Virus record (IMG/VR): IMGVR_UViG_2875713109_000001
Reading direction: 5' to 3' (one strand)
Origin: a virus
Lineage: Duplodnaviria > Heunggongvirae > Uroviricota > Caudoviricetes
Length of the DNA stretch: 64,000 nt
Of this stretch, positions 3,880-62,722 are shown in pieces (within the stretch, counting starts at the first letter, position 1; each line of letters begins with the position of its first letter). The notes beneath the pieces were generated by a model. It was not told the origin of the DNA, did not search any database, and was given only the letters and a program-made list of their open reading frames with translations. The position numbers were made by a program, and so were the translations under genes.

Positions 3880-4066
3880 GTATTTTTAAGTCGCGAATGC
3901 TATCTTTTCGCATCATATTGACCTTTTAATCGTTCAGGCTTATAGTTTCGCCGTCGTAGCAAATTCTGCGACCAGGTTTGACAGCCTGAATGATTGTGCG
4001 GACAACCGCAGATTTCCGATATTGCGGTATTTTTGTGTCCGTTAAACCGCGTTACGCCCAAATTAT

Positions 4067-4143
4067 GGTGGGGCGTGATGGGGAGGCTTCGGCCTGCTGG
4101 TTTCACAATCGCCAGTCTGTCAACCCTGTCACGTCCTGCCACC
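4067..4143 (+). ncRNA. c4: c4-like antisense regulatory RNA (about 77 nt)
   Basis: Structured segment closed by ggtgg/ccacc with UUCG hairpin; internal cacaatc and caacc are complementary to gattgtg and ggttg found both upstream (3972-3999) and at the icd RBS (4146-4183), the a/b target layout expected for c4. Confidence 0.45.
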
Positions 4144-4193
4144 TGTTTGACAGCGGGTAGCAGGTTGTTAAACCTGATTGTGAGGCCGTAACT

Positions 4194-4415: not shown

Positions 4416-5446
4416 AAACACCTCTCGTCACCCGTAATGAAATAGCCGAAGCGATCGCCTTGCATACTGCCTGTATGCCGACACGGGAGATCCCCGGCGC
4501 AATTGCTAACTATTTCATGATAACCAGACGTTTTTATACCCGAACAGATAAGGCTGTGATCAACAGGCTACTGATAGCCGAGATCAGGGATTATTTGATT
4601 GAACAAGGACGTCTACGTTACGCAACAGTGGCAGCAGAAATGAGAAAGGAGGCACATAGAATGACCGGTAATAATTTAAATGTTGAAAAACCAGCACCTG
4701 TTGCTTCAGCTACGCCAGCACCAGCCCTGAATGTCATCCCCAACACCGGAGACACAATCGACAGCCAAACATTGTTGAAGATGGTCAATGAGGCACGGAA
4801 ATTATGTAGCGAAAAACCAGTTCGCAACAATGATTTCATTGCCAGAGTTAAGGATGAGCTTGAAGGAGAAACCTACGAAATTTTCGTAGGTCAAAAAAAC
4901 GGCGCAGAAATAGATATTATAACCATGACCTACAAACAAGCCCTGCGAGTTGCCGCGCGCGAGTCAAAAGCGGTCCGCCGTTCGCTGATCGACAAACTGG
5001 AAGAATTGCAGCAGGCAAACTCCCCTACCCCATCGATCCCCCAAACATTACCAGAAGCTCTACGCCTGGCTGCCGAGTTGGCAGAACAGAAAATGCAGTT
5101 GGAACAACAGCTGGTGGCCGCAGCCCCTAAAGTCGATTTTGCCGACCGGGTATCAGTGGCCAATGGAATCCTGATCGGGAACTTTGCAAAGGTCGTTGGA
5201 CTTAAGCAAAACGCCCTTTTCTCATGGTTGCGCCAGAACGGCATTCTCATGGCTTTTGGTGCGCGCAAAAACGTACCGCGCCAACAGTACATCAACGCCG
5301 GGTATTTCACAGTGAAAGAAGTGGTGCTGGATGATGAAAATGGCTACCAGATACGGCTGACGCCCCAATTAACGGGTAAAGGCCAGCAGTGGTTAACTCG
5401 CAAGCTACTTGATGCTGGTTTGTTAAAACCAGTAGCAATAGGTTAA
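4412..5446 (+). CDS. ant: antirepressor Ant (Rha-like middle region, KilA-C-type C-terminal domain)
   Basis: 344 aa; C-terminal about 130 aa shared with KilA (5611-6411) and with the 371-aa paralog at 51206-52321; immI position after c4-like RNA and icd. Confidence 0.75.
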   Translation: MKTPLVTRNEIAEAIALHTACMPTREIPGAIANYFMITRRFYTRTDKAVINRLLIAEIRDYLIEQGRLRYATVAAEMRKEAHRMTGNNLNVEKPAPVASATPAPALNVIPNTGDTIDSQTLLKMVNEARKLCSEKPVRNNDFIARVKDELEGETYEIFVGQKNGAEIDIITMTYKQALRVAARESKAVRRSLIDKLEELQQANSPTPSIPQTLPEALRLAAELAEQKMQLEQQLVAAAPKVDFADRVSVANGILIGNFAKVVGLKQNALFSWLRQNGILMAFGARKNVPRQQYINAGYFTVKEVVLDDENGYQIRLTPQLTGKGQQWLTRKLLDAGLLKPVAIG

Positions 5447-5541: not shown

Positions 5542-5610
5542 CGTTTTCTAAGTGCAAAGAATCACCATTTCGAGCTGGTGATTGAAGGTTGATGCAAATT
5601 TGGAGAAAAA

Positions 5611-6411
5611 ATGCAACAAACATTCAATGCGGATATGAATATATCAAACCTTCATCAAAATGTCGATCCTTCAACCACTCTGCCTGTTATTTGTGGTGTT
5701 GAAATTACGACCGACCGCGCTGGCCGTTACAACCTTAATGCTCTACACAGAGCGAGCGGACTCGGTGCCCATAAAGCGCCAGCTCAATGGCTAAGAACGC
5801 TGTCAGCCAAACAGCTCATTGAAGAGCTTGAAAAAGAAACTATGCAGAATTGCATAGTTTCGTTCGAAGGCCGTGGCGGCGGCACTTTTGCACATGAATT
5901 GCTCGCAGTGGAGTACGCAGGTTGGATTTCTCCCGCGTTTCGGCTGAAGGTAAACCAGACATTTATCGACTATCGAGCTGGAAGATTACAACCTGCTATT
6001 CCGCAGAGCCTCCCAGAAGCTCTCCGTTTGGCTGCTGACCTGGCAGAGCAAAAGCAACGGCTGGAGCAAAAAATGCTGATGGATGCACCTAAAGTCGAAT
6101 TCGCCGAACGCGTTGCTACCGCCAGCGGGGTTCTAATCGGCAACTATGCCAAAGTGCTCGGCCTGGGCCAAAACTATCTCTTCACCTGGTTGCGTGATAA
6201 CGGAATTCTGATCGCAACCGGTGAACGCAGGAACGTCCCCAAACAAGAATACATATCCCGTGGGTATTTCACCCTTAAAGAAACCGTGATCGATACAAGC
6301 AATGGAAGCAGGATTTCTTTCACGACTCGTATAACCGGCAAAGGTCAGCAGTGGCTGATGAAGCGATTGCTTGATGCTGGTGTGCTGGTACCTGTCGCGG
6401 CAACGCGCTAA
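5611..6411 (+). CDS. kilA: KilA (KilA-N domain plus KilA-C domain)
   Basis: 266 aa as in P1 KilA; N-terminal KilA-N-like region; C-terminal domain homologous to Ant C-terminus; GGAGAAAAA SD. Confidence 0.8.
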   Translation: MQQTFNADMNISNLHQNVDPSTTLPVICGVEITTDRAGRYNLNALHRASGLGAHKAPAQWLRTLSAKQLIEELEKETMQNCIVSFEGRGGGTFAHELLAVEYAGWISPAFRLKVNQTFIDYRAGRLQPAIPQSLPEALRLAADLAEQKQRLEQKMLMDAPKVEFAERVATASGVLIGNYAKVLGLGQNYLFTWLRDNGILIATGERRNVPKQEYISRGYFTLKETVIDTSNGSRISFTTRITGKGQQWLMKRLLDAGVLVPVAATR

Positions 6412-6440
6412 CAGACGTAGTAAGAACCACCAGCATTGTA

Positions 6441-7286
6441 ATGCTGGCTAAAGTCACTTTCCTGAGCTGTATAACGATGAGCGATTTTACTTTTTCTGGC
6501 TATGAATTGGCTTGCTTTGTAACACACTCCGGTCTATCCCGTAGCGCCGGGCATATCCTGTCGCAATGTGCAAATCTCGCGGCAACAACCAGTGAATACT
6601 TCATTCACAAGCCTCACCGCTTGATCGCGGCAGAAACTGGTTATAGCCAATCAACCGTCGTTCGTGCATTCCGTGAAGCTGTAAACAAAGGAATCCTGTC
6701 TGTAGAGATTGTTATCGGCGATCACCGTGAACGTCGCGCTAACCTGTACCGGTTTACACCATCCTTTTTGGCCTACGCACAACAAGCCAAAAATGCGCTG
6801 ATTGAAAGCAAATTAAAGATCTCTTCAGCCGCAACCAAGGTTAAAGCTGTTCTCGCTAAGACATTGGCTTTATTTAATTTTTTATCCACACCCCCATGTC
6901 AAAATGATACCCCCTCCCCCTGTCAGGATGACGTGGCAATAAAGAATAAGAAGTCACAAGTTAAAAAAACAAAAAGATCAGTTTCCGGCGGTGCCGGAAC
7001 GACCAGACTCAAAAAATTGACTTCATGGATCGCTGAGGCAAAAGCAAAGGCTGACAATCTGCGGTTATCCAAAAAACGCGCTCAAAAACATGAGTTCAAG
7101 CAGAAAGTAGAGGCGGCAGCGCGGAAATATGCTTACCTGAAGAACAAGCGTTCTCCTGATATTGACGGGGTATCAAACTTCGATAATTTGCCGCATTGCA
7201 TGACGGTAAACGAAGCTCTTAATGCGGTTTTAGCCAAAAATAAAGATAACGAACAATGGGGTATACCGGCAGGATTCAGAGGGTAA
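6441..7286 (+). CDS. repL: RepL lytic-replicon initiator (oriL expected inside the gene)
   Basis: 281 aa, size and position immediately after kilA match P1 RepL; basic K/R-rich middle region; alternative start at 6477. Confidence 0.7.
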   Translation: MLAKVTFLSCITMSDFTFSGYELACFVTHSGLSRSAGHILSQCANLAATTSEYFIHKPHRLIAAETGYSQSTVVRAFREAVNKGILSVEIVIGDHRERRANLYRFTPSFLAYAQQAKNALIESKLKISSAATKVKAVLAKTLALFNFLSTPPCQNDTPSPCQDDVAIKNKKSQVKKTKRSVSGGAGTTRLKKLTSWIAEAKAKADNLRLSKKRAQKHEFKQKVEAAARKYAYLKNKRSPDIDGVSNFDNLPHCMTVNEALNAVLAKNKDNEQWGIPAGFRG

Positions 7287-7328
7287 TGAATTGTTCTAAT
7301 TATAACCATGCATACTTTCAACGCCTCT

Positions 7329-7348
7329 AGTTTGCCATGAGGCAAACT
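7329..7348. other. perfect 8-bp-stem hairpin between repL and the AT-rich cassette
   Basis: agtttgcc-atga-ggcaaact. Confidence 0.4.
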
Positions 7349-7454
7349 CATAGGCGTCCTGGTAAGAGGGCACTGTTGCCAAAACTGGACGTCCCATTAT
7401 TGCAATTAATAAACAACTAACGGACAATTCTACCTAACAATAAGTGGAGTTAAC

Positions 7455-8159
7455 ATGTTGAACCGAAGAACATTTAATGTATTCTGCGATGAATCCTGTC
7501 ACCTACTAAATGATCATAATAAAGTCATGGTATTGGGTGCGCTTTGGTGCCCTGGCACTATCACAAAAAAAATTGCTAGAGACATCAAGGAATTAAAATT
7601 AAAACACAATCTAAAACCTGATTTCGAAATCAAGTGGACTAAAGTATCTGCGTCCAAGGTTGAATTTTACTTAGATGTCGTAGATTACTTCTTCAGCAAC
7701 CCAGCATTGCGCTTTAGAGGTGTTGTTGTTCCTGATAAAGAGCAACTGGACCATGCTCGATTCCATCAAGATCATAATACTTTCTATTATAAGATGTTTT
7801 TTTATGTCTTAAAAAACATAATAGAAAGTAACAACACATACAATATCTACCTAGATATAAAAGATACTTTAGGTATTGAAAAAATTGAGAAATTAAGAGG
7901 AGTTCTTCACAATGATCGCTATGATTACAATCATGAGTCGATAAACAGAATTCAACATATACGATCTCATGAAGTGCAACAATTGCAGCTAACGGATCTT
8001 TTCATTGGTGCGTTAGGCTACGTTCATCGAGGAATGAATAGCAACGCGGGAAAAATCCAAGTCATAAACAGGATAAAATCACATACAAACAGGGATTTAC
8101 TAAAAAGCACTCTTCCAACAGAAAGTAAATTTAATATTTTCGTGTGGGAGGCTCGCTGA
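7455..8159 (+). CDS. DUF3800-like protein (234 aa), AT-rich cargo gene
   Basis: ORF with GTGGAG SD; N-terminal FNVFCDESCH and C-terminal QLQLTDLFIGAL resemble the conserved ends of DUF3800 proteins (from memory, not searched); local GC far below flanks. Confidence 0.5.
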   Translation: MLNRRTFNVFCDESCHLLNDHNKVMVLGALWCPGTITKKIARDIKELKLKHNLKPDFEIKWTKVSASKVEFYLDVVDYFFSNPALRFRGVVVPDKEQLDHARFHQDHNTFYYKMFFYVLKNIIESNNTYNIYLDIKDTLGIEKIEKLRGVLHNDRYDYNHESINRIQHIRSHEVQQLQLTDLFIGALGYVHRGMNSNAGKIQVINRIKSHTNRDLLKSTLPTESKFNIFVWEAR

Positions 8160-8623
8160 TGCTTCAAATGCCAGATTTATTGTACTTCAATGGAAGTTGG
8201 CAAGAGTATATAGACGATGTATATTATGTTGTCAGAGAAGACATTTTAATCTCTAATATAACGTTTAAGGGTCTCCCTGTTCGGTTACGTTATTCACCGG
8301 AATATGATGGGAAAGAGTTCGGATTTTGGCATTTAGTATCAGAGGGAAAAATAGAAGAAGAACGAATACCTGATCTTGAACGGTGTAAGCGGATCCGCTG
8401 GATCGCGCATATGATAAGGAATTATAACCATTCCGATATATCATGTTGGTCTGAAAGACGAGGACCAACTGAAGAATGGGTAATCTGGAACGAGTGTGAA
8501 AACTACGTTGTTGTGCTATCCGCACGTAGAGACTATTGGCTTCTTAAAACAGCCTATGTTGTAACCTATAACAGTAAAATCAGAACACTCAAACAAAGCA
8601 GAAAAAGAGCGCTTGGGACATAA
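8159..8623 (+). CDS. hypothetical protein (154 aa) translationally coupled to DUF3800-like gene
   Basis: ATG overlaps upstream stop (TGATG) with GGGAGG SD; YD...(13)...LVSEGK spacing is compatible with a PD-(D/E)xK nuclease core (speculative). Confidence 0.45.
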   Translation: MLQMPDLLYFNGSWQEYIDDVYYVVREDILISNITFKGLPVRLRYSPEYDGKEFGFWHLVSEGKIEEERIPDLERCKRIRWIAHMIRNYNHSDISCWSERRGPTEEWVIWNECENYVVVLSARRDYWLLKTAYVVTYNSKIRTLKQSRKRALGT

Positions 8624-8630
8624 AAAAGCT

Positions 8631-8662
8631 GAACCCGACACATATTGCTATGTATCGGGTTC
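8631..8662. terminator. hairpin between convergent gene B and minus-strand ORF
   Basis: gaacccga...tcgggttc inverted repeat just after gene B stop, A-run upstream. Confidence 0.4.
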
Positions 8663-8789
8663 GATCGCTCTTTCTACACATGGTAGATGAGTAAGGCAAA
8701 TCTAACCGATCTACTTTAGCTTTTCAATAGCTAGCTATAACTTTCCGCACATATTCTTCTGATAATTCCAGTATGGCTGTTGGGTTTTC

Positions 8790-9086
8790 TTATGCTTTTC
8801 TGCGCAGAGGTGCACATTTATTCAGCAACAATAAATGTAATTCTTTGTTATTCCTAAGTATTTCGACACACCAATATCGTAACGTGTTCACTTCAAGTGT
8901 AGCCAGCACCTTATGTCGAAGTCCTCCCTCCCCTGCACATAACGATGACTGACATTCTGCTAAGGCACATAACCATGTATTGGCATCATAGAGAATCCAA
9001 TAATGCTCCTCTGAAATAGTTTTGCATCCAATTATTTCGAATCTTCGTTCTATCGTTTCAGGAGAGTATGAAAAATCAATTTCCAT
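8790..9086 (-). CDS. hypothetical Cys-rich small protein (98 aa)
   Basis: ORF only; weak RBS; sits between a minus-strand terminator and the cassette. Confidence 0.25.
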   Translation of the reverse strand: MEIDFSYSPETIERRFEIIGCKTISEEHYWILYDANTWLCALAECQSSLCAGEGGLRHKVLATLEVNTLRYWCVEILRNNKELHLLLLNKCAPLRRKA

Positions 9087-9126
9087 AATATGCTCAAAAT
9101 TTCGCTATACCAGCATAATTTAAGCA

Positions 9127-9152
9127 CAAAAAAAGCTCCCGCAGGAGCTTTA
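9127..9152 (-). terminator. intrinsic terminator of minus-strand structural operon
   Basis: agctcc-cgca-ggagct hairpin followed by T-run on minus strand, just downstream of ORF ending at 9171. Confidence 0.5.
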
Positions 9153-9170
9153 AAATACAAGGGATGACTC

Positions 9171-9680
9171 TTAATCCCACTCAATCCAGTTGTAAACGAT
9201 ACGAAGTGACGGGCGCACAGCGGCAGTCACATCTTCGGTACTAAAGTCGATTGCATCACTGTAGATTTTGCAGTCCAACATTTCAATTGTTGTAGCAGCT
9301 TTTGTCACAGCGTTAACCCCGGAAGATTTGGATTCAGGGGTCGCAGCCATCGTGATATCAACATAGTCCTTCGCCGCAATGCGATCTTTAATGAACTGAA
9401 GAATATCGCCTTCGATAGTCTCCACGCACTGGACCTGGATTTCCCCGGAGTTACGGATTGGACCGTGCTGGTTGAACTTCACACCATTCGGACCATAGTC
9501 CTCCACATCCTCGCGGGTCATTTCAGGAATTTGCGACGTGCGAACCAGTACGCTGATATCTTCATGGCCTGCAAAAGTGAGCTGGAATTCAGAAGATACC
9601 AGTCGTTCGCCTTTGGCCGCGTTGGCAGTATAGCGGCCCTTAATAAATTTACGGTTTCCCTTAGTGTTATTGTGCCCCAT
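9171..9680 (-). CDS. virion structural protein (169 aa), tail-tube-sized
   Basis: Last gene of co-oriented structural array; size typical of myovirus tube proteins; no motif confirmation. Confidence 0.35.
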   Translation of the reverse strand: MGHNNTKGNRKFIKGRYTANAAKGERLVSSEFQLTFAGHEDISVLVRTSQIPEMTREDVEDYGPNGVKFNQHGPIRNSGEIQVQCVETIEGDILQFIKDRIAAKDYVDITMAATPESKSSGVNAVTKAATTIEMLDCKIYSDAIDFSTEDVTAAVRPSLRIVYNWIEWD

Positions 9681-9691
9681 ATAAAATCCTT

Positions 9692-10273
9692 TTACTGGAA
9701 CGCCCGAACAATATCGGAGCTGTTATATATCGAAGAACCGGTCAACTGGAGGTTGACGGTGTTTTTCAGGAAATGCCCATTGCTGTCCCTGGGCGCATCG
9801 AGATCGAAACTTATGTCCTGGATAGCGACATCAATGATGTTGATCCGGCGACCAATGTTTAGCGTCACACGCTCCGGGATTCGACCACCAATACTGGCAT
9901 CTTTAAGTTCCGGGCTAATCATCGCTGACAATGCGGCGATAGCTCCTGAAACCTCCGTGAATGGGTCAAACAAAGCGATGAAAGTTACTGGCAGCGTGAA
10001 AGTCGGCGGTGTTCCCCCTTCCCAAACCATTAAGCTGTTCCAACGGGCAACCGACGTTGTTTCAGTACCAACCTGCGCAAAACCACTGAAGGCACCAGCA
10101 ACAGATCCCATGGACATACCGGTAAACGGCGCTTCCCAATTCTGGGCCATGTTCATTGCCGCTCCCTGGCTGATATATCCGGTAACCTGGTACTGAGAGT
10201 TCGTTAAAGTAACTTTCAGATATGGCGATACACCGTCAGCCTGGCTGTAAACCCCATAAGGTATAGGTGCCAT
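9692..10273 (-). CDS. virion-associated hypothetical protein (193 aa)
   Basis: ORF in structural array. Confidence 0.4.
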   Translation of the reverse strand: MAPIPYGVYSQADGVSPYLKVTLTNSQYQVTGYISQGAAMNMAQNWEAPFTGMSMGSVAGAFSGFAQVGTETTSVARWNSLMVWEGGTPPTFTLPVTFIALFDPFTEVSGAIAALSAMISPELKDASIGGRIPERVTLNIGRRINIIDVAIQDISFDLDAPRDSNGHFLKNTVNLQLTGSSIYNSSDIVRAFQ

Positions 10274-10308
10274 TCAAGTTAAAGGCCGGAGTTCTCCGGC
10301 CTCCTCCT

Positions 10309-50648: not shown

Positions 50649-50851
50649 TGTTTTTTGACTGCCGATGTTACATTGAACCTGACCTCTTGCGCCTTGAGGC
50701 ATTTTCGGTTTATGCTTATCAGGCACCTCATTAAAACGGGTGCCGGGATTGGAACCCCGGATAATGCAAAAGGCGACACAGACGCCAAAAGCGTCTTTTT
50801 TTGTGTCATGCCATCGCACAGCCATACGTAGCACATAGCTCCGAGATCAAT

Positions 50852-50926
50852 GGTAGTGCTGGCTGGGCTGCCGAAAGGCAGGCCGGTTCCCTTTTGCGCC
50901 GGTAGTTCCAACCCAGTCAGTGCTAC
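50852..50926 (+). ncRNA. second c4-like structured RNA (tentative)
   Basis: About 75 nt closed by ggtag/ctacc with GAAA-loop hairpin ctgcc-gaaa-ggcag; same position relative to the icd-like gene as 4067-4143. Confidence 0.3.
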
Positions 50927-50987
50927 CGCCATTGAGATTGGAACCTCACGCGGTAGCTCCTTAAGTTAGCAAAAGGAGGCTGCCATT

Positions 50988-51209: not shown

Positions 51210-52321
51210 GAACATCATTAGTCACCCGTAAAGAAATGATCGAGGCAATTGAACAGCACACTGCCTGTATCAGTACCAGGGATATACCTGGCGTTATTGC
51301 CAACTACTTCATGATCACCAAACAACTTTACCGGAGAAAGGACAAAAACGCGGTTCACCGCATTCTGCTAACCGATATCCGTGAATACCTGCTCGAACAG
51401 GGTCATCTGAATTACGCAACCGTCGCAGCCGAAGCACGCAAGGAGGCACACAGAATGAAAGCAACTAACGTTAAATCAGAAAAAACTCATGCACCTTCAG
51501 TTCAGGAATCGGAGCTGGTGGTTGTTCAGAATCAGTCTGATGAAATTCCCGTTCTGGAATGGCTGGGAGTGCGTGTAGTGACAACTAAGATCCTTGCTAA
51601 GGGGTATGGGACAGATGCGGATAACATCAAGAAGAACTTTTCCCGTAATGCTGAACGTTTTTGTGAAGGCAAGCATTTCTATAAAGTTATTGGAGATGAT
51701 TTGAACAATTTGCGGGTGACTTTAAGTAACTCACAAAATCCTATCTCTCCTAAAGCCCGCTCACTCATCCTCTGGACGGAACGCGGCGCAGCCCGCCACG
51801 CTAAAATGATCGAAACCGATCAGGCATGGGCATTCTTTGAAAAACTGGAAGACAGCTACTTCCGACAAAAAGAACAGCAACCGATCGCAATCCCCCAGAC
51901 GCTTCCAGAAGCTCTGCGCCTTGCTGCCGAACTGGCTGAACAAAAGCAACTTCTGGAACAGAAAGCCCATCAGCTAAATCAGCAGCTGGTGGCCGCAGCC
52001 CCCAAAGTCGATTTTGCCGACCGGGTATCAGTGGCTAAGGGGATCCTGATTGGGAATTTTGCAAAGGTCGTTGGACTTAAACAAAATGCGCTGTTTGCCT
52101 GGTTACGGGAGAACGGCATTCTGATAGCGTCCGGCGGCCGTAAAAATGTACCGTTCCAGCAGTACATAAACGCCGGATATTTCACAGTGAAAGAAGTGGT
52201 GCTGGATGATGAAGAGGGCTACCAGATACGGCTGACGCCCCAATTAACGGGGAAAGGCCAACAGTGGTTGACGCGTAAACTGCTCGATGCTGGCTTGTTA
52301 AAACCGGTGGCGGCTGAATAA
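51206..52321 (+). CDS. antirepressor-like protein, second copy (ORF6N-like middle domain, KilA-C C-terminus)
   Basis: 371 aa; N- and C-terminal regions homologous to Ant, different central domain; ATG overlaps icd-like stop. Confidence 0.7.
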   Translation: MRTSLVTRKEMIEAIEQHTACISTRDIPGVIANYFMITKQLYRRKDKNAVHRILLTDIREYLLEQGHLNYATVAAEARKEAHRMKATNVKSEKTHAPSVQESELVVVQNQSDEIPVLEWLGVRVVTTKILAKGYGTDADNIKKNFSRNAERFCEGKHFYKVIGDDLNNLRVTLSNSQNPISPKARSLILWTERGAARHAKMIETDQAWAFFEKLEDSYFRQKEQQPIAIPQTLPEALRLAAELAEQKQLLEQKAHQLNQQLVAAAPKVDFADRVSVAKGILIGNFAKVVGLKQNALFAWLRENGILIASGGRKNVPFQQYINAGYFTVKEVVLDDEEGYQIRLTPQLTGKGQQWLTRKLLDAGLLKPVAAE

Positions 52322-56749: not shown

Positions 56750-57391
56750 ATGGATAAGAAAATATGCGTTGTTTCAATGAGCGTCGGCAAACCGGCGTCA
56801 ATGACTGCTGCATGGATCAACAATGAGCTGATAATGGCTGAGCGGACCAGCTACCCTGAACGCCGCCGCGATATGGAACTCCAGCTGCTGCGCGAATTGC
56901 GAGAAAAAGAGGAAAAGGGTTTTATCGTGCTGGTGGAAGAGGAAAACAGCTTTATTACCGGTCGAGTTGGCCAGCGTGTAAGGTTGCGTGATCCCTTCAT
57001 GAACGGTAGACCGGTACTGATTGAAGCAATGCAGATTTACAAGGAATTGGAACGCCAGAAAGCGATCAAGTTACCGCGCAAGGAATCCGGCAAATACATC
57101 CTCCACCAAAGCATCTTCGATTCCGAACATGACAAAAAAGGCGATGAATTTTTCAACATCAACTGGAGCGAAATAACGACAGAGCACGTTCTGACGTTGT
57201 TATGCTGCTTCGCAACGGAATACAACAACGTTGCAAACTCCGACTACATCAGGGCAATGGCTGGAGAAGTTGAGCCACGCCAGGAACCATCGTTACTAAG
57301 CCCACTGATTAACATAATTCGCGGCACACAGAGACTTGCGGAAAAAAGCGTTCCACATGGAATCTTAACTGGAAAGGGAAACTATTTTTAA
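56750..57391 (+). CDS. mat: Mat-like protein (tentative)
   Basis: ORF between ref and res as P1 mat; ATG 56750 preferred over upstream track start. Confidence 0.5.
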   Translation: MDKKICVVSMSVGKPASMTAAWINNELIMAERTSYPERRRDMELQLLRELREKEEKGFIVLVEEENSFITGRVGQRVRLRDPFMNGRPVLIEAMQIYKELERQKAIKLPRKESGKYILHQSIFDSEHDKKGDEFFNINWSEITTEHVLTLLCCFATEYNNVANSDYIRAMAGEVEPRQEPSLLSPLINIIRGTQRLAEKSVPHGILTGKGNYF

Positions 57392-57432
57392 CGACCTGAG
57401 CGCCACTTCTTTCAGGTCGTGTTGGATGTCAT

Positions 57433-57457
57433 AAAAAGGAGGTTTTCACCTCCTTTT
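57433..57457. terminator. bidirectional terminator between mat and res
   Basis: aaaaaggagg-ttttca-cctcctttt. Confidence 0.55.
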
Positions 57458-57466
57458 AAACTGGAA

Positions 57467-60379
57467 TTATGGTAATGCGCTCTTGATTAACTGATAAATA
57501 TCATCATTAGCAAACTGCGTTTTGAATTCAACTTTAACAGACTGACTTATTTGATTGAAAAGCGCCTGGGCATGTTCAATTTTCTTTTTTTCTTCAAGCC
57601 GTAAACTATCCTTACTATCTACGTTTTTTGTTTCAATGATAAAGTTAAGATAATCACCTTCTGCTGTTTTTACAACATAAGCAAAATCGGGTGAGTAAGT
57701 GTATCCACCAGCTACCGGGATCTTAATAGAATTCTTCGGTATCTTTGAAAAAACAACAACAGACTGGATCTCTCTATCTGTTATATTACGCCTTTCAAGC
57801 TCTGAATCATAAAAAACCTCTTCAAAAAGATAAGTATCTAATGGTGCTTTTGAATTATCCTGTAATACACCAAGATCACTTGATAATACCTCGTCTAGAG
57901 GCTTACCATCAGCATTTGTGAACTTTGTGGGATGAATTGAACCCGAAATCAAATTATATCCGAGGCTGAATTTGTTAAACGAATTGTTCAACAAATACTT
58001 ACTAAAACCAGATTTAATTTTTCTGATTGTTTGAATATTCAGGTATTCAGTGATATTAATAGTGTCTTTTATATCACAAAAAACTTTATGTAAAGTATCG
58101 TGTTTAACAAAAATAGTCTGTGATAAGTTATCGAGAAACTCTCGATAACTCATTGTGTTTAGCTTAGCAAAGTCATCGTCATCACTAACAATGCTTTTCG
58201 ACATTGCCATATCATTGTGGATGTAAATTTTATCAATGCGAGTATGAACGCCTGATTTGGTAAATCGTTCTGTTTCTTCGAGCATGAATGACTTGAAAAT
58301 GGATAAAAACTCATTTTCACTGTTTATTTTGTACTCAATCACCGCTTTTTGATTGATTAATTCCCATAGTTCTTTCAGCTCACTGAACTTACCAACACGC
58401 ATTTTAGTGCGTCTTTTTCCATCAGTAGCTTTTTTGATTTTACCTGGTTTCACTCCTATAGGGAATGCTGCTGGATATTTGGATTTTAAGCGGCTGTAGG
58501 CATCTGAATCTTTGAAATTATCATTTTCATCAATGATTTCATCATTGAAAAGTTCATTCATTAGTGCTCTGGATGAAAGCTCAGGATACTGAGCCCTGAT
58601 TTGTTCCTTAAGCTCTTGAGTAAACTTACTTGGAACCCTTTCTTTGAAAGAACTCTCATTGACCTCTTTAACAAGTGAGTCAACAAAATCCTTTTCTGTA
58701 AAATCGACATAATATTTAAGGGTAAAATTGCGGTCTTTCACTCGACACATGTATTCATTCACAGGAAGACGCAAACCGCGCCCTACCTCTTGAAGCTTGG
58801 ATGTGGTACTACCGCTCGAACGGAGCTTACAGATCTGAAAGACATTAGGATTATCCCATCCCTCACGCAACGTCCATTTGGAGAAAATGAAACGACGTGG
58901 ATTATCTAAAGACAGCAAAAGCTCTTTGTCATGAAGGATTTCGTTGATTTCCTTCTCGATTTTATCATCCTTATCACTGTTATCTTTTGAAAAATAACCG
59001 CCATGAACGGAAGATATATCTTTAACTGTTTTTTCAAGATAGTTACTATAAAACTCATCTTTTTCTATTTTTAACAGTTCATTAGCTTCTGCCAAAACAT
59101 ATTCTTCGAACTTAGCTTTCAAACTTCCGGCAATATTATTACCGTCACGATAACCTTCAATATCATCAATAAAGAAAAGAGTAAGAGGCTTTATGCGTGG
59201 CCTTTGTGTCAGAAACTCTTTTTCTAACTTAAAGTGTTCTTTGATAGCTTTCCTCATCATGCTGTCAGCAAGTGTCTGATCGTAAGAATAGGGGTTTATT
59301 GAGCAACCAATTTTTAGCTCAATACCATTACTCAACACTACTGTATTCTTGCCTAAGGCATCAAGAGTTAAATCGTGAATAGCACTATGTGTCTTAGATA
59401 GAGATTCACCTTTTGTTAACTTAAATAAAGTTTTCTTGTTATTTTCATTTAGCTCAAATGTAACTTCTTCCCCATCAGATTTAATGAACTTTAGGTTGGC
59501 GTCACCATCACCAACAATATCCTCAATGTACGCATCAATACCTTTAACAAGGTCTTCATTAAATGCATCCACAGCTGTAAGTCGATAAACTAAATTCTTA
59601 TAGCCTTCACTAAAGGTCGCACCGTAGCGGATAATATATTGAGCATTAAACTTCTCTATATTTTCCCATGTCTTTTTACCAGTAGGAAATTTATGTGGTT
59701 CATCAATGATAATGAATGGTTTTACCGCACCAAGAGCTGAAAAGGGAGAATCAAAATGATTGTCAAGCAAGCCAACATCATAAGTGGAATTTAAATTCTT
59801 AGAGTGAATCATTCCCGTGTTAATAACAAGAACGTGTATATATTTCTTATTGAAATTACTAGCTTCAACAAAATCATGTATAGCTTGAGGCATATACGAT
59901 TTTGTGCTTTTACCGGCATTTTTCTGACTTTCAACAACGTAAGTCTTTATTTCACGCTCATAATCATCTCTAAAGTGTTCTTTTAACGCATCGCTTTTCA
60001 AAAAGTTCACTGTTCCAGCTTTGATCGATAGAGTAGGAACAATAATGATAAACTTATTAATGCCAAATGATTTGTTCAGATCAAAAATTGTTTTAGTGTA
60101 GGTATACGTTTTACCTGTACCTGTCTCCATAGAAACATCGATTACGTTGCTTCCAGCATCGTAATTATTTTTTACATGTTCAATACCATTGAGTTCCTGA
60201 ACTTTTTTTATATTTTTATAGTATTGCTGTTCAGTAAGCCGTAATTCTGGATTAACTAACAGGCGAATAGAAACATTATCCTCCTGATGAGATGTCGCGG
60301 AAACAAAAACGTTCATCACCGCATCGACACCTGCTTTCTGATGCGGTAAGTTCTTTTCGAATGTGAACCCTTTTGACAT
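57467..60379 (-). CDS. res: type III restriction enzyme Res subunit
   Basis: 970 aa as in EcoP1I Res; helicase motifs METGTGKTYTY (Walker A) and IIIDEPHKF (DEAH-like); AT-rich. Confidence 0.9.
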   Translation of the reverse strand: MSKGFTFEKNLPHQKAGVDAVMNVFVSATSHQEDNVSIRLLVNPELRLTEQQYYKNIKKVQELNGIEHVKNNYDAGSNVIDVSMETGTGKTYTYTKTIFDLNKSFGINKFIIIVPTLSIKAGTVNFLKSDALKEHFRDDYEREIKTYVVESQKNAGKSTKSYMPQAIHDFVEASNFNKKYIHVLVINTGMIHSKNLNSTYDVGLLDNHFDSPFSALGAVKPFIIIDEPHKFPTGKKTWENIEKFNAQYIIRYGATFSEGYKNLVYRLTAVDAFNEDLVKGIDAYIEDIVGDGDANLKFIKSDGEEVTFELNENNKKTLFKLTKGESLSKTHSAIHDLTLDALGKNTVVLSNGIELKIGCSINPYSYDQTLADSMMRKAIKEHFKLEKEFLTQRPRIKPLTLFFIDDIEGYRDGNNIAGSLKAKFEEYVLAEANELLKIEKDEFYSNYLEKTVKDISSVHGGYFSKDNSDKDDKIEKEINEILHDKELLLSLDNPRRFIFSKWTLREGWDNPNVFQICKLRSSGSTTSKLQEVGRGLRLPVNEYMCRVKDRNFTLKYYVDFTEKDFVDSLVKEVNESSFKERVPSKFTQELKEQIRAQYPELSSRALMNELFNDEIIDENDNFKDSDAYSRLKSKYPAAFPIGVKPGKIKKATDGKRRTKMRVGKFSELKELWELINQKAVIEYKINSENEFLSIFKSFMLEETERFTKSGVHTRIDKIYIHNDMAMSKSIVSDDDDFAKLNTMSYREFLDNLSQTIFVKHDTLHKVFCDIKDTINITEYLNIQTIRKIKSGFSKYLLNNSFNKFSLGYNLISGSIHPTKFTNADGKPLDEVLSSDLGVLQDNSKAPLDTYLFEEVFYDSELERRNITDREIQSVVVFSKIPKNSIKIPVAGGYTYSPDFAYVVKTAEGDYLNFIIETKNVDSKDSLRLEEKKKIEHAQALFNQISQSVKVEFKTQFANDDIYQLIKSALP

Positions 60380-60381
60380 GA

Positions 60382-62322
60382 TTAGTTCCTTACCACTAAA
60401 TCTAACTCAATAGATTTTTTGTTAGCATAACTTTTTAGCGCCTCATTAAGCTCCCTTTGTTTTGCACTTTCAAAGTTACAACCATAAAACACGACTTTGT
60501 TTGGGGCAAAATCTTCATCTGAATCCAGCTTTTGGAGCAACGCTTTCAATGCTTCGCTAGTAAAATTAGGTGCAATCAAATACAGACGGCCATTGCAAAA
60601 GTGTGCTGTATAGCCACTAAGATCAACATCTTCAATAGGTGTTGTTAACAAGCTACCATCATATACACACCATGTAGTCAATAGGGCATCATACTGTTCA
60701 GGCGTTAATACCGCATCATCAAAGAATGTATGATTAGTGAGCGTAAGTTCAGACTCAACTTTTGCTCTAAAGTCATCAATAGTATGAATCACTTTGAAAC
60801 CTATTTTAGCCGCATTATCACTTGTGGTTGTGCTTTTTTTAAATACCTCCTGTATCCTTTTTTTTGTTATTTCAAAAATAGATCTATAGCCAAGAGAATA
60901 GGCATTCTTTGTTTTATTTATAACTTCATCTTTTTGTATGCATATAAAATTCCTACAGCCTGAATCTTTTTCATTTAAATATGCAACAGCTTCTGCTGTC
61001 GTACCAGAGCCAGCAAAAAAGTCAAGAACTAATGAATCCTTTTTTGTTCCTATTTTTACAAGATCGGTTATAAGAGGAACAGGTTTTGGTCCTTCAAATA
61101 ATTTTGCACCTAAAAGATTTTTAAGCTCAGTTGTCGCCGTGCTTGTACTATATTCAGGTTTATACCAAATTGATTTTGGCTTTTTAGTTGGTAGCTCTCC
61201 AAGAGCAGGCCGCTGTTTTTTATAGATATTTTTACCATCTTTTATATCTATTACTATTAGATTATAAAACTCATCATTTATTTTTTTCTTTCCCCACGAC
61301 CATGAAAGCTCTTCACCCGTAGGGCTTACTGGGTAAAGTACATAGTCATCTTCGTTAAGAGGTTTATCATCATCTGTTACATAAACCTTATTTTCTGAAT
61401 TGATGAATACCGGAAACCAACCTTTTGGTCTTGATTTTCTAGAAGCATCTTGGCCAGTACGCTTTAATGTATCAGCTCTTTTAAATAGCCCATATTCATC
61501 TTCATCCCACTCTTTTTCAACTTCACTTTCATCAATATCGAATTGCCCCAAACTACAAACATCTTTGTTTTTAGCGTATACATATATATATTCATGCGTA
61601 TCTGAAAAGCCAAAGTTATCATGATTGCCTTTGAGATTCATGATTGTAGGGAGTTTTGCAACAAAATTACCTTGCCCAAATACTTCGTCGCATAATAATC
61701 CCAACTGTTTATCTTCGTTATCGTCTATGGAGATGAATATTACTCCATCCTCTTTTAAAAGTTCACGTGCAATATAAAGACGAGGATAAATGAATGTCAG
61801 CCATGCACTATGACTGCTTGAACCCTTGGTGGTAAATTCAAGTATGCGGTTAGCCTCATCAAGCTCGATACCTGCCAGTTCAGAAAGCTGTTCTGGTGTA
61901 AACTTGCGATCATCGTTATAGACGAATCCATCTTTACCCGTATTGTATGGTGGGTCAATGTAAATCATATTCACCTTTTCAGCATAAGCATTAACCATAT
62001 GCTTCAATACTTCGAGGTTATCCCCTTTGATTAACAGGTTTTGACTGTTCTTGTTCTCTTCTTGTTGGTTATGTGTTTTATCTTCTGCCAACAACGTTTT
62101 CGGTGGTAGATTGGCCAACAAACGGGCATAAGATTTACCCAGCCAGTTTAAACTGTATGATTCTTTAGAGAGTTCAACCTCCGATGCTCTAATAATCTCA
62201 AGCAATTTTTCTTGAATGAAGGCTCCGTTTTTATCAAAACACTGTGGGAAATTAGCTTTCAACACAGCCAGTTGCTTGCTGTTAGCCGTTTCTACTTCGG
62301 AAAAAATCGTTTCTTTTTTCAT
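60382..62322 (-). CDS. mod: type III modification methyltransferase Mod subunit
   Basis: N6-adenine MTase DPPY (IYIDPPYNTGKD) and FxGxG (VLDFFAGSGTTAEA); start at MKKETIF gives 646 aa (track ORF begins 21 nt upstream). Confidence 0.9.
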   Translation of the reverse strand: MKKETIFSEVETANSKQLAVLKANFPQCFDKNGAFIQEKLLEIIRASEVELSKESYSLNWLGKSYARLLANLPPKTLLAEDKTHNQQEENKNSQNLLIKGDNLEVLKHMVNAYAEKVNMIYIDPPYNTGKDGFVYNDDRKFTPEQLSELAGIELDEANRILEFTTKGSSSHSAWLTFIYPRLYIARELLKEDGVIFISIDDNEDKQLGLLCDEVFGQGNFVAKLPTIMNLKGNHDNFGFSDTHEYIYVYAKNKDVCSLGQFDIDESEVEKEWDEDEYGLFKRADTLKRTGQDASRKSRPKGWFPVFINSENKVYVTDDDKPLNEDDYVLYPVSPTGEELSWSWGKKKINDEFYNLIVIDIKDGKNIYKKQRPALGELPTKKPKSIWYKPEYSTSTATTELKNLLGAKLFEGPKPVPLITDLVKIGTKKDSLVLDFFAGSGTTAEAVAYLNEKDSGCRNFICIQKDEVINKTKNAYSLGYRSIFEITKKRIQEVFKKSTTTSDNAAKIGFKVIHTIDDFRAKVESELTLTNHTFFDDAVLTPEQYDALLTTWCVYDGSLLTTPIEDVDLSGYTAHFCNGRLYLIAPNFTSEALKALLQKLDSDEDFAPNKVVFYGCNFESAKQRELNEALKSYANKKSIELDLVVRN

Positions 62323-62473
62323 ATCCATTTTAAACCAGATCATTTAGCAACAAAGCGCCGCCTCCCCAGCCCGTTAGAGCCAGAAGTTGTGGCACTATCA
62401 CTATCTATATGTTTGAAGAATCGTGCTTCTTTGAGCGATGCTCGGTGAGCAAACAGCCATAATTTGGGGAAGT

Positions 62474-62722
62474 TTAATCCGCATTGAGAAGCAATGCATT
62501 ATCTATGATGATCTGCTCCCATTCTTCGAATGCCCGGTCACGGACGCCCTGGGGAACGCTGTTAGTTTTGAAATCGACGACCGTACGCCATTTCCCGTCC
62601 GGACGGTACATGCGCAGAGCTTTACTTCCCCCTTCCCTGCGCACCTCAACGTTATGCTTATCAGCAAACTCTTGTAATGCTCGTAGCGTCCCATGCTTTA
62701 CTGTGTAGTATCGCTTTTTCAA
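62474..62722 (-). CDS. lxc: Lxc/Bof-like C1 corepressor
   Basis: 82-aa ORF directly upstream of mod, matching size and position of P1 lxc. Confidence 0.65.
   Translation of the reverse strand: MKKRYYTVKHGTLRALQEFADKHNVEVRREGGSKALRMYRPDGKWRTVVDFKTNSVPQGVRDRAFEEWEQIIIDNALLLNAD

Follow-up and report, generated by a model that had tools for sequence, protein, structure and literature searches.

What is the role of rlfA and rlfB, the two overlapping genes of P1-like phage-plasmids, and does the term 'replication-linked' describe it? Few phages have been used in genetics as much as P1, but its rlfA-rlfB pair keeps a placeholder name that has spread into databases. The question is raised here by a stretch of 64,000 nucleotides from a tailed virus of the Caudoviricetes (IMG/VR record IMGVR_UViG_2875713109_000001), called the window when its whole length is meant, in which an earlier note, made from the letters alone, had singled out an AT-rich two-gene cassette downstream of repL. 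We infer, with a probability of roughly one half, that rlfAB represents a mobile nuclease module, self-contained and made of two genes, which is carried as exchangeable defence or conflict cargo, and the best reading of the present evidence takes the pair out of 'replication' and places it under 'mobile conflict cargo'. Added here to what was known of the pair are fold assignments for both proteins, their conserved residues, the true limits of the cassette and quantitative evidence against a replication-linked role.

Identity and organization of the gene pair

As judged from nucleotide identity, the pair is itself rlfA-rlfB of a P1-family phage-plasmid and not merely a stand-in at the position of these genes; the earlier note had named the right locus, but by position only. 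In megablast comparisons with phage records, positions 7290-8700 are 97.4% identical to P1 rlfA-rlfB (AF234172, 51575-52984) and 97.5% identical to P7 rapA-rapB, and the same interval is found at 100% identity on the Escherichia coli plasmid NZ_AP026785.1. Synteny with P1 includes kilA and repL upstream and pmgF, bplB and pmgG downstream, with about 97% identity over 5600-10300. Compared with the P1 and P7 pairs, the genes, their neighbours and the C1 operator are the same, and the differences are allelic only, including one C>T change in the operator relative to P1. This operator reads ATTGTTCTAATTATAAC and starts with ATTGTTCTAAT, whereas P1 and P7 have ATTGCTCTAAT. The translational coupling with strong ribosome-binding sites that had been noted earlier is borne out: the sequence TGATG at 8157-8161 combines the rlfA stop with the rlfB start, so that the genes share one base, and the start codons are preceded by GGAG (5 nucleotides ahead of the rlfA ATG) and GGGAGG (7 nucleotides ahead of the rlfB ATG).

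An exchangeable low-GC cassette

The GC content dips to 36.7% over 7440-8640, compared with 46.7% for the whole window, which places this segment within the lowest 7% of 1200-nucleotide windows; rlfA has 35% and rlfB 39% GC. The drop itself had been recognized in the earlier note, but not its right end, as low GC values of 0.38-0.39 run on past 8640 until about 9100. When the window is aligned by blastn with four P1-like phages that carry other cargo, homology breaks at 7300 (7253 in SJ46) and returns at 9128-9129. The exchangeable unit is therefore 7301-9127 (37.5% GC) and includes pmgF. The left break falls inside the C1 repressor operator Orlf, after ATTG(C/T)TCTAAT (ATTGCTCTAAT in P1 and P7), and elements with other cargo retain only the left 11 bases of this operator. 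Published comparisons have listed rlfA-rlfB-pmgF as low-GC variable region 5 (PMC9603915) and have described replacements of this region (PMC6906374).

The two hairpins that had been proposed to bracket the segment do exist, but neither of them is a border of the cassette, given the breakpoints at 7300 and 9128. The hairpin between repL and rlfA is unremarkable alone, as hairpins of its size occur at 0.64 per kb within the window. The one past rlfB looks like, mainly, a terminator for leftward (pmgF) transcription, since its T-run lies on the minus strand, and it could in addition end transcripts coming from rlfAB.

P1-type repL was counted in 517 complete E. coli genomes and rlfAB in 121 (about 23%), and phage records that share both flanks are divided into eight with rlfAB and 11 with other content. 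Together with the low GC content, these counts support horizontally acquired cargo, as had been suggested; the pair is not the ubiquitous backbone of P1-family genomes that the earlier note had named as the outcome that would speak against this idea, but optional, horizontally exchanged low-GC cargo. By its behaviour, the slot between repL and bplB is an accessory-gene hotspot. In other P1-like phages (our locus numbers and positions in brackets) it is occupied by a short gene of the hok/mok type, annotated as MokW (MH422554; L001, 2365-2520), by three unrelated hypothetical open reading frames (ORFs) (SJ46; L003, 1980-3618), by an IS605-family transposase together with a 198-amino-acid protein (RCS47; L004, 2045-3214) or by hypothetical genes (673R5).

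Distant relatives and restriction-modification operons

By scanning one genome per species, 80 loci were obtained that encode an RlfA of about 50% identity. According to their record titles, these belong to Bacteroidota, Nitrospirota, Desulfobacterota, Chloroflexota, Cyanobacteria, Acidobacteriota, Planctomycetota, Verrucomicrobiota, Pseudomonadota and others. A homologue of RlfB is encoded directly downstream of RlfA in 78 of the 80, the two genes mostly overlapping, and a few of these loci seem frameshifted. In four loci (L008 at 4699-5178, L026, L068 and L079) the rlfB homologue is split in two ORFs by possible frameshifts, reflecting either decay or assembly errors. RlfA is better conserved than RlfB in every locus where both were compared (76/76), with median identities of 52 and 36%, respectively.

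The genomic surroundings of these relatives differ from those of the P1 pair. In 45/80 loci, hsdM, hsdS or hsdR, detected by iterated profiles seeded from two loci, is found on the same strand within 6 kb, and the usual order at such type I restriction-modification (R-M) loci is hsdM-hsdS-A-B-hsdR, where A and B stand for the rlfA and rlfB homologues. Type III R-M genes, ABC-type ATPases and integrases, recognized by Pfam, are further immediate neighbours. Closer to P1, the copy of Enterobacter ludwigii directly follows the integrase of an integrated prophage, an E. coli copy outside P1 follows the integrase of an integrative mobilisable element, and a Klebsiella copy lies on a small island beside symE. 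A reverse transcriptase gene is also seen next to the pair in a few cases: in Algoriphagus (L005/L006, 2470-3978) an RVT_1 gene for a protein of 502 amino acids stands directly beside the rlfAB-like pair within a type I R-M operon, and in a metagenome-assembled genome of Chitinophagaceae (L023) such a gene adjoins the pair downstream. RVT_1 genes beside the pair are limited to 3/85 loci and echo the link between DUF3800 and retrons discussed below.

The same loci bear on the limits of the module. pmgF, which belongs to the exchangeable unit, was considered as a third gene of the system and rejected: it was found in 0/80 distant rlfAB loci, and diverged relatives of it (42% identity over 64 amino acids) occur within the alternative cassettes of SJ46 and RCS47. 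It is thus probably outside the rlfAB module.

RlfA has an RNase H2-like fold

The attribution of the first gene to DUF3800, made in the earlier note from the motifs FNVFCDESCH and QLQLTDLF, proved correct: RlfA matches Pfam DUF3800 (PF12686) with an E-value of 3.6e-14 and 54.1 bits, against a gathering cut-off of 21. Both motifs are present, and they hold D12, E13, Q178 and D181, which together with D134 and D137 are invariant in an alignment of 31 sequences. By fold comparison RlfA is RNase H2-like, and with this fold and four conserved carboxylates it belongs to the RNase H-like superfamily, its acidic active-site set (D12, E13, D134/D137 and Q178xxD181) being intact. The DEDD set of RNase H2 is matched by the neighbouring Asp and Glu of the first strand together with Asp residues further on, a correspondence drawn from secondary-structure position and not from residue-level superposition. 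No sequence-level match of RlfA to solved structures was obtained, and sequence identity to RNase H2 and RNase HIII is only about 8-13%. Differently from these enzymes, RlfA has the QxxD motif and invariant C15, H16, K60 and W61, which are specific to DUF3800. The RNase H-like character of DUF3800 has been remarked on before (PMC7736814, PMC10910872, PMC12669027) and is consistent with our RlfA alignment. The family is very large, as one search alone returned 5,461 clusters (at 90% identity), and identities of 52-66% persist in proteins of Bacteroidota, Nitrospirota and Burkholderia.

The fold of RlfA, like the place of the pair in P1, may be seen as favouring an accessory role in lytic replication, in which RlfA would process the oriL-activating transcript or R-loop, oriL itself lying within repL, and RlfB would help. 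The pair indeed follows repL/oriL directly and in the same orientation, Orlf marking the junction, and its early induction in P1vir infection accompanies that of repL (bioRxiv 10.64898/2025.12.28.696737). However, knock-down by CRISPR interference has identified both rlfA and rlfB as non-essential for P1 lytic growth, the pair being dispensable for plaque formation (PMC10695390), about 77% of the repL-carrying E. coli genomes are devoid of rlfAB, and low GC content and cassette-like exchange point to cargo. In addition, a RepL homologue was found in 0/80 of the distant loci, where R-M operons or integrases are present instead. We regard this role as quite unlikely, and 'replication-linked' is probably a mislabel. 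For this label, as for 'replication protein' and 'oxidoreductase', no experimental or homology basis was found. The latter two are unsupported-looking names given to RlfB homologues ('oxidoreductase' at NCBI, 'replication protein' in RefSeq and PHROG 16230), and they appear to be propagated labels. In a similar manner, RefSeq entries for E. coli plasmids call RepL (6441-7286) a 'MarR family transcriptional regulator', although all Pfam helix-turn-helix matches of RepL are below threshold.

A putative RelE-like ribonuclease core in RlfB

RlfB belongs to no Pfam or NCBIfam family, and no sequence-level link was detected to solved structures or to the RelE query sequence that was used. When 1.84 billion cluster representatives were searched with a profile, 1,767 relatives were returned, counted as representatives at 50% identity, all of which are stand-alone proteins of about 150-190 amino acids. 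All of 76 diverse homologues keep H58 and R75, and R69 (kept in 74), D72, W97 and T131 (73 each), R78 (69), and R123 and Y116 (67 each) are nearly invariant. The predicted model, a confident one (predicted local distance difference test score, pLDDT, 91.6), starts with helices, continues in a four-stranded antiparallel meander and ends with a C-terminal helix. A Foldseek search with RlfB against the PDB gave no significant match. About 75-90 of its residues superpose on BECR/RelE-fold RNase toxins at 2.4-3.8 A, a modest match, the comparison set being the colicin D tRNase domain, CdiA-CT, RelE, YafQ, YoeB, HigB, MqsR, BrnT and T4 RegB. In its model RlfB seems to have in common with these toxins the succession of helices and a four-stranded antiparallel sheet, and its conserved His, Arg, Thr and Tyr residues are typical of metal-independent RNases. 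The model and the conservation pattern suggest, with moderate confidence, that the core of RlfB is BECR/RelE-like with a His/Arg site. The PD-(D/E)xK nuclease core that the earlier note had read from SEGK (residues 61-64) has to be abandoned: of the 76 homologues, 44 retain S61, 36 retain E62 and only 11 retain K64, and the predicted fold also speaks against it.

A RelE- or colicin D-like protein encoded downstream of a putative neutraliser also recalls toxin-antitoxin (TA) addiction modules, with RlfB as the RelE-like toxin and RlfA as its neutraliser, stabilising the plasmid prophage or mobile element. Type II TA loci typically have this gene order, the neutraliser preceding the toxin in overlapping cistrons; the nearest enterobacterial copies are always on mobile elements or islands; and another P1-like phage carries a hok/mok-type module, MokW, in the very same slot. 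Yet RlfA is larger than RlfB and carries an invariant catalytic set, it is the better conserved partner, which is the reverse of most TA pairs, and Pfam reveals no DNA-binding antitoxin-like domain in it. P1 is, moreover, already equipped with phd-doc. Addiction is a plausible but rather unlikely reading, and it overlaps with a defence or conflict role, many TA-like modules being defence systems.

Relation to catalogued and known systems

The earlier note had been unable to assign the pair to a named system. A match does exist, as PADLOC detects the adjacent genes of PDC-M04, with model PDC-M04A covering RlfA residues 5-233 (1.2e-95) and PDC-M04B covering RlfB residues 6-150 (2.5e-51), but PDC-M04 is only a catalogued candidate. 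It belongs to a set of 145 candidates collected by 'guilt-by-embedding' in BREX, DISARM and type I R-M loci, which its authors call untested (10.1101/2024.01.29.577857). Both models are matched nearly end to end, and the gene order, the overlap and the presence of relatives in type I R-M operons are shared; differently from the embedded loci, the P1 pair is phage-plasmid cargo placed behind a repressor operator. The searchable literature holds no test of PDC-M04 or of rlfAB, leaving PDC-M04 a candidate class only. The pair is accordingly known twice already, as P1 rlfA-rlfB and as the PADLOC candidate PDC-M04.

The position of many rlfAB relatives between hsdS and hsdR is also that of PrrC, the anticodon nuclease of the EcoprrI type I R-M locus. 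PrrC is an RNase effector encoded in the same place, but it is a single protein of the ABC-ATPase type without homology to RlfA or RlfB, and the P1 pair has no adjacent R-M system.

DUF3800 domains have been linked to retrons and CRISPR loci (PMC7736814, PMC10910872, PMC12669027), namely to type VII retrons, to TPR-DUF3800 proteins beside Cas12a2/a3 and type VI-F, and, in addition, to the RNA motifs DUF3800-I to -XI. The Pfam domain and the recurrent association with defence or mobile elements are the same here, whereas rlfAB is characterized by a constant protein partner, RlfB, and lacks a reverse transcriptase fusion, TPR and CRISPR. The window has neither an adjacent or fused reverse transcriptase with its RNA nor a TPR fusion beside cas genes. 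The DUF3800 RNA motifs (Weinberg 2017) have no match in the window at the Rfam gathering threshold, none at E<=10 in 7000-9200 and none in 11 distant loci searched with Rfam; several distant loci that were inspected have little or no non-coding space next to the rlfA homologue.

These associations, together with early lytic expression and the upstream C1 operator, could be taken to favour counter-defence, that is, an RNase H-like enzyme that destroys host immune nucleic acid (retron msDNA, guide or signal RNA) in the course of P1 infection. Most homologues are, however, chromosomal and lie inside the host's own R-M operons, which is a signature used for predicting defence and not anti-defence, and counter-defence appears very improbable indeed.

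A working model for RlfA and RlfB

For the preferred reading of rlfAB as a mobile nuclease module, the following mechanism may be proposed as the most likely. RlfA, presumed from its intact acidic site to bind or cut RNA:DNA hybrids or similar nucleic-acid structures, would sense or process an invader's nucleic-acid intermediate, after which RlfB would cleave mRNA or tRNA and so halt either the infected cell or the invader. Because the genes are translationally coupled and obligately paired, the two proteins may work together as a single complex when mobile elements and phages come into conflict. The residues of note for this mechanism are D12, E13, D134 and D181 of RlfA and H58, R69 and R75 of RlfB. 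Any result obtained on the P1 pair would inform thousands of R-M-embedded loci as well as an unvalidated PADLOC candidate.

Several points weigh against this reading. The searchable literature contains no defence, toxicity or nuclease experiment for RlfA, RlfB or PDC-M04; the C1 operator upstream and the early induction in P1vir, together with repL, fit a role in the lytic cycle at least equally to protection of the lysogen; and the P1 pair does not adjoin an R-M system. The modest fold match of RlfB calls for caution, and the assignment of sensor and effector is inference only.

A more specific version, which we put forward tentatively and consider rather doubtful, is that rlfAB forms a two-enzyme immune module in which RlfA would detect RNA:DNA hybrids or R-loops of the invader, or report failed restriction in a PrrC-like manner, and thereby release a translation-stopping RlfB. 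If so, P1 would carry an overlooked abortive-infection or exclusion system that has for decades been labelled 'replication-linked function'.

Features of the locus and other observations in the window

The features of the locus are compiled in Table 1. PrlfA agrees with the consensus at 8/12 positions only and was therefore missed by our own promoter scan. A very AT-rich part of the rlfA coding sequence contains a 13-nucleotide perfect inverted repeat with a 27-nucleotide spacer (7778-7830), and the P1 record places several predicted internal rlfB promoters in this general area.

Table 1. Coordinates of genes, signals and cassette limits between repL and bplB, as positions in the window.
Feature	Position	Strand	Remarks
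C1 repressor operator Orlf (former Op55)	7290-7306	+	From the P1 annotation (AF234172, 51575-51591; monovalent); Op(rap) in P7
Exchangeable low-GC cassette rlfA-rlfB-pmgF in the repL-bplB slot	7301-9127	.	From blastn breakpoints and GC content
Hairpin between repL and rlfA	7329-7348	+	8-bp perfect stem, -10.8 kcal/mol, without T-run
PrlfA, predicted weak sigma-70 promoter	7400-7428	+	TTGCAA, 17 nucleotides, GACAAT; position carried over from the P1 annotation (51685-51713)
rlfA (gene A)	7455-8159	+	234 amino acids, ORF call
rlfB (gene B)	8159-8623	+	154 amino acids, ORF call; start overlaps the rlfA stop
Hairpin past rlfB	8631-8662	-	14-nucleotide arms, 93% complementary, -18.3 kcal/mol, T-run on minus strand
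pmgF	8790-9086	-	98 amino acids, 93% amino acid identity to P1 PmgF; in the variable cassette
Terminator hairpin after bplB	9132-9151	-	Right edge of the variable cassette

Two observations concern other parts of the window. Its lowest-GC island is located at 56901-62551 (down to 33%) and contains two minus-strand ORFs, 57467-60379 (970 amino acids) and 60382-62343 (653 amino acids), which we take, from their size and position, to be probably the P1-type res-mod type III restriction system. In addition, two matches to C4-type antisense RNA were found, one at 4061-4146 (region 3940-4146), adjoining its own a1/b1 target element, and the other at 50846-50933 (region 50723-50933), adjoining an isrK-like RNA; the window therefore seems to contain two immunity-I-like RNA regions.

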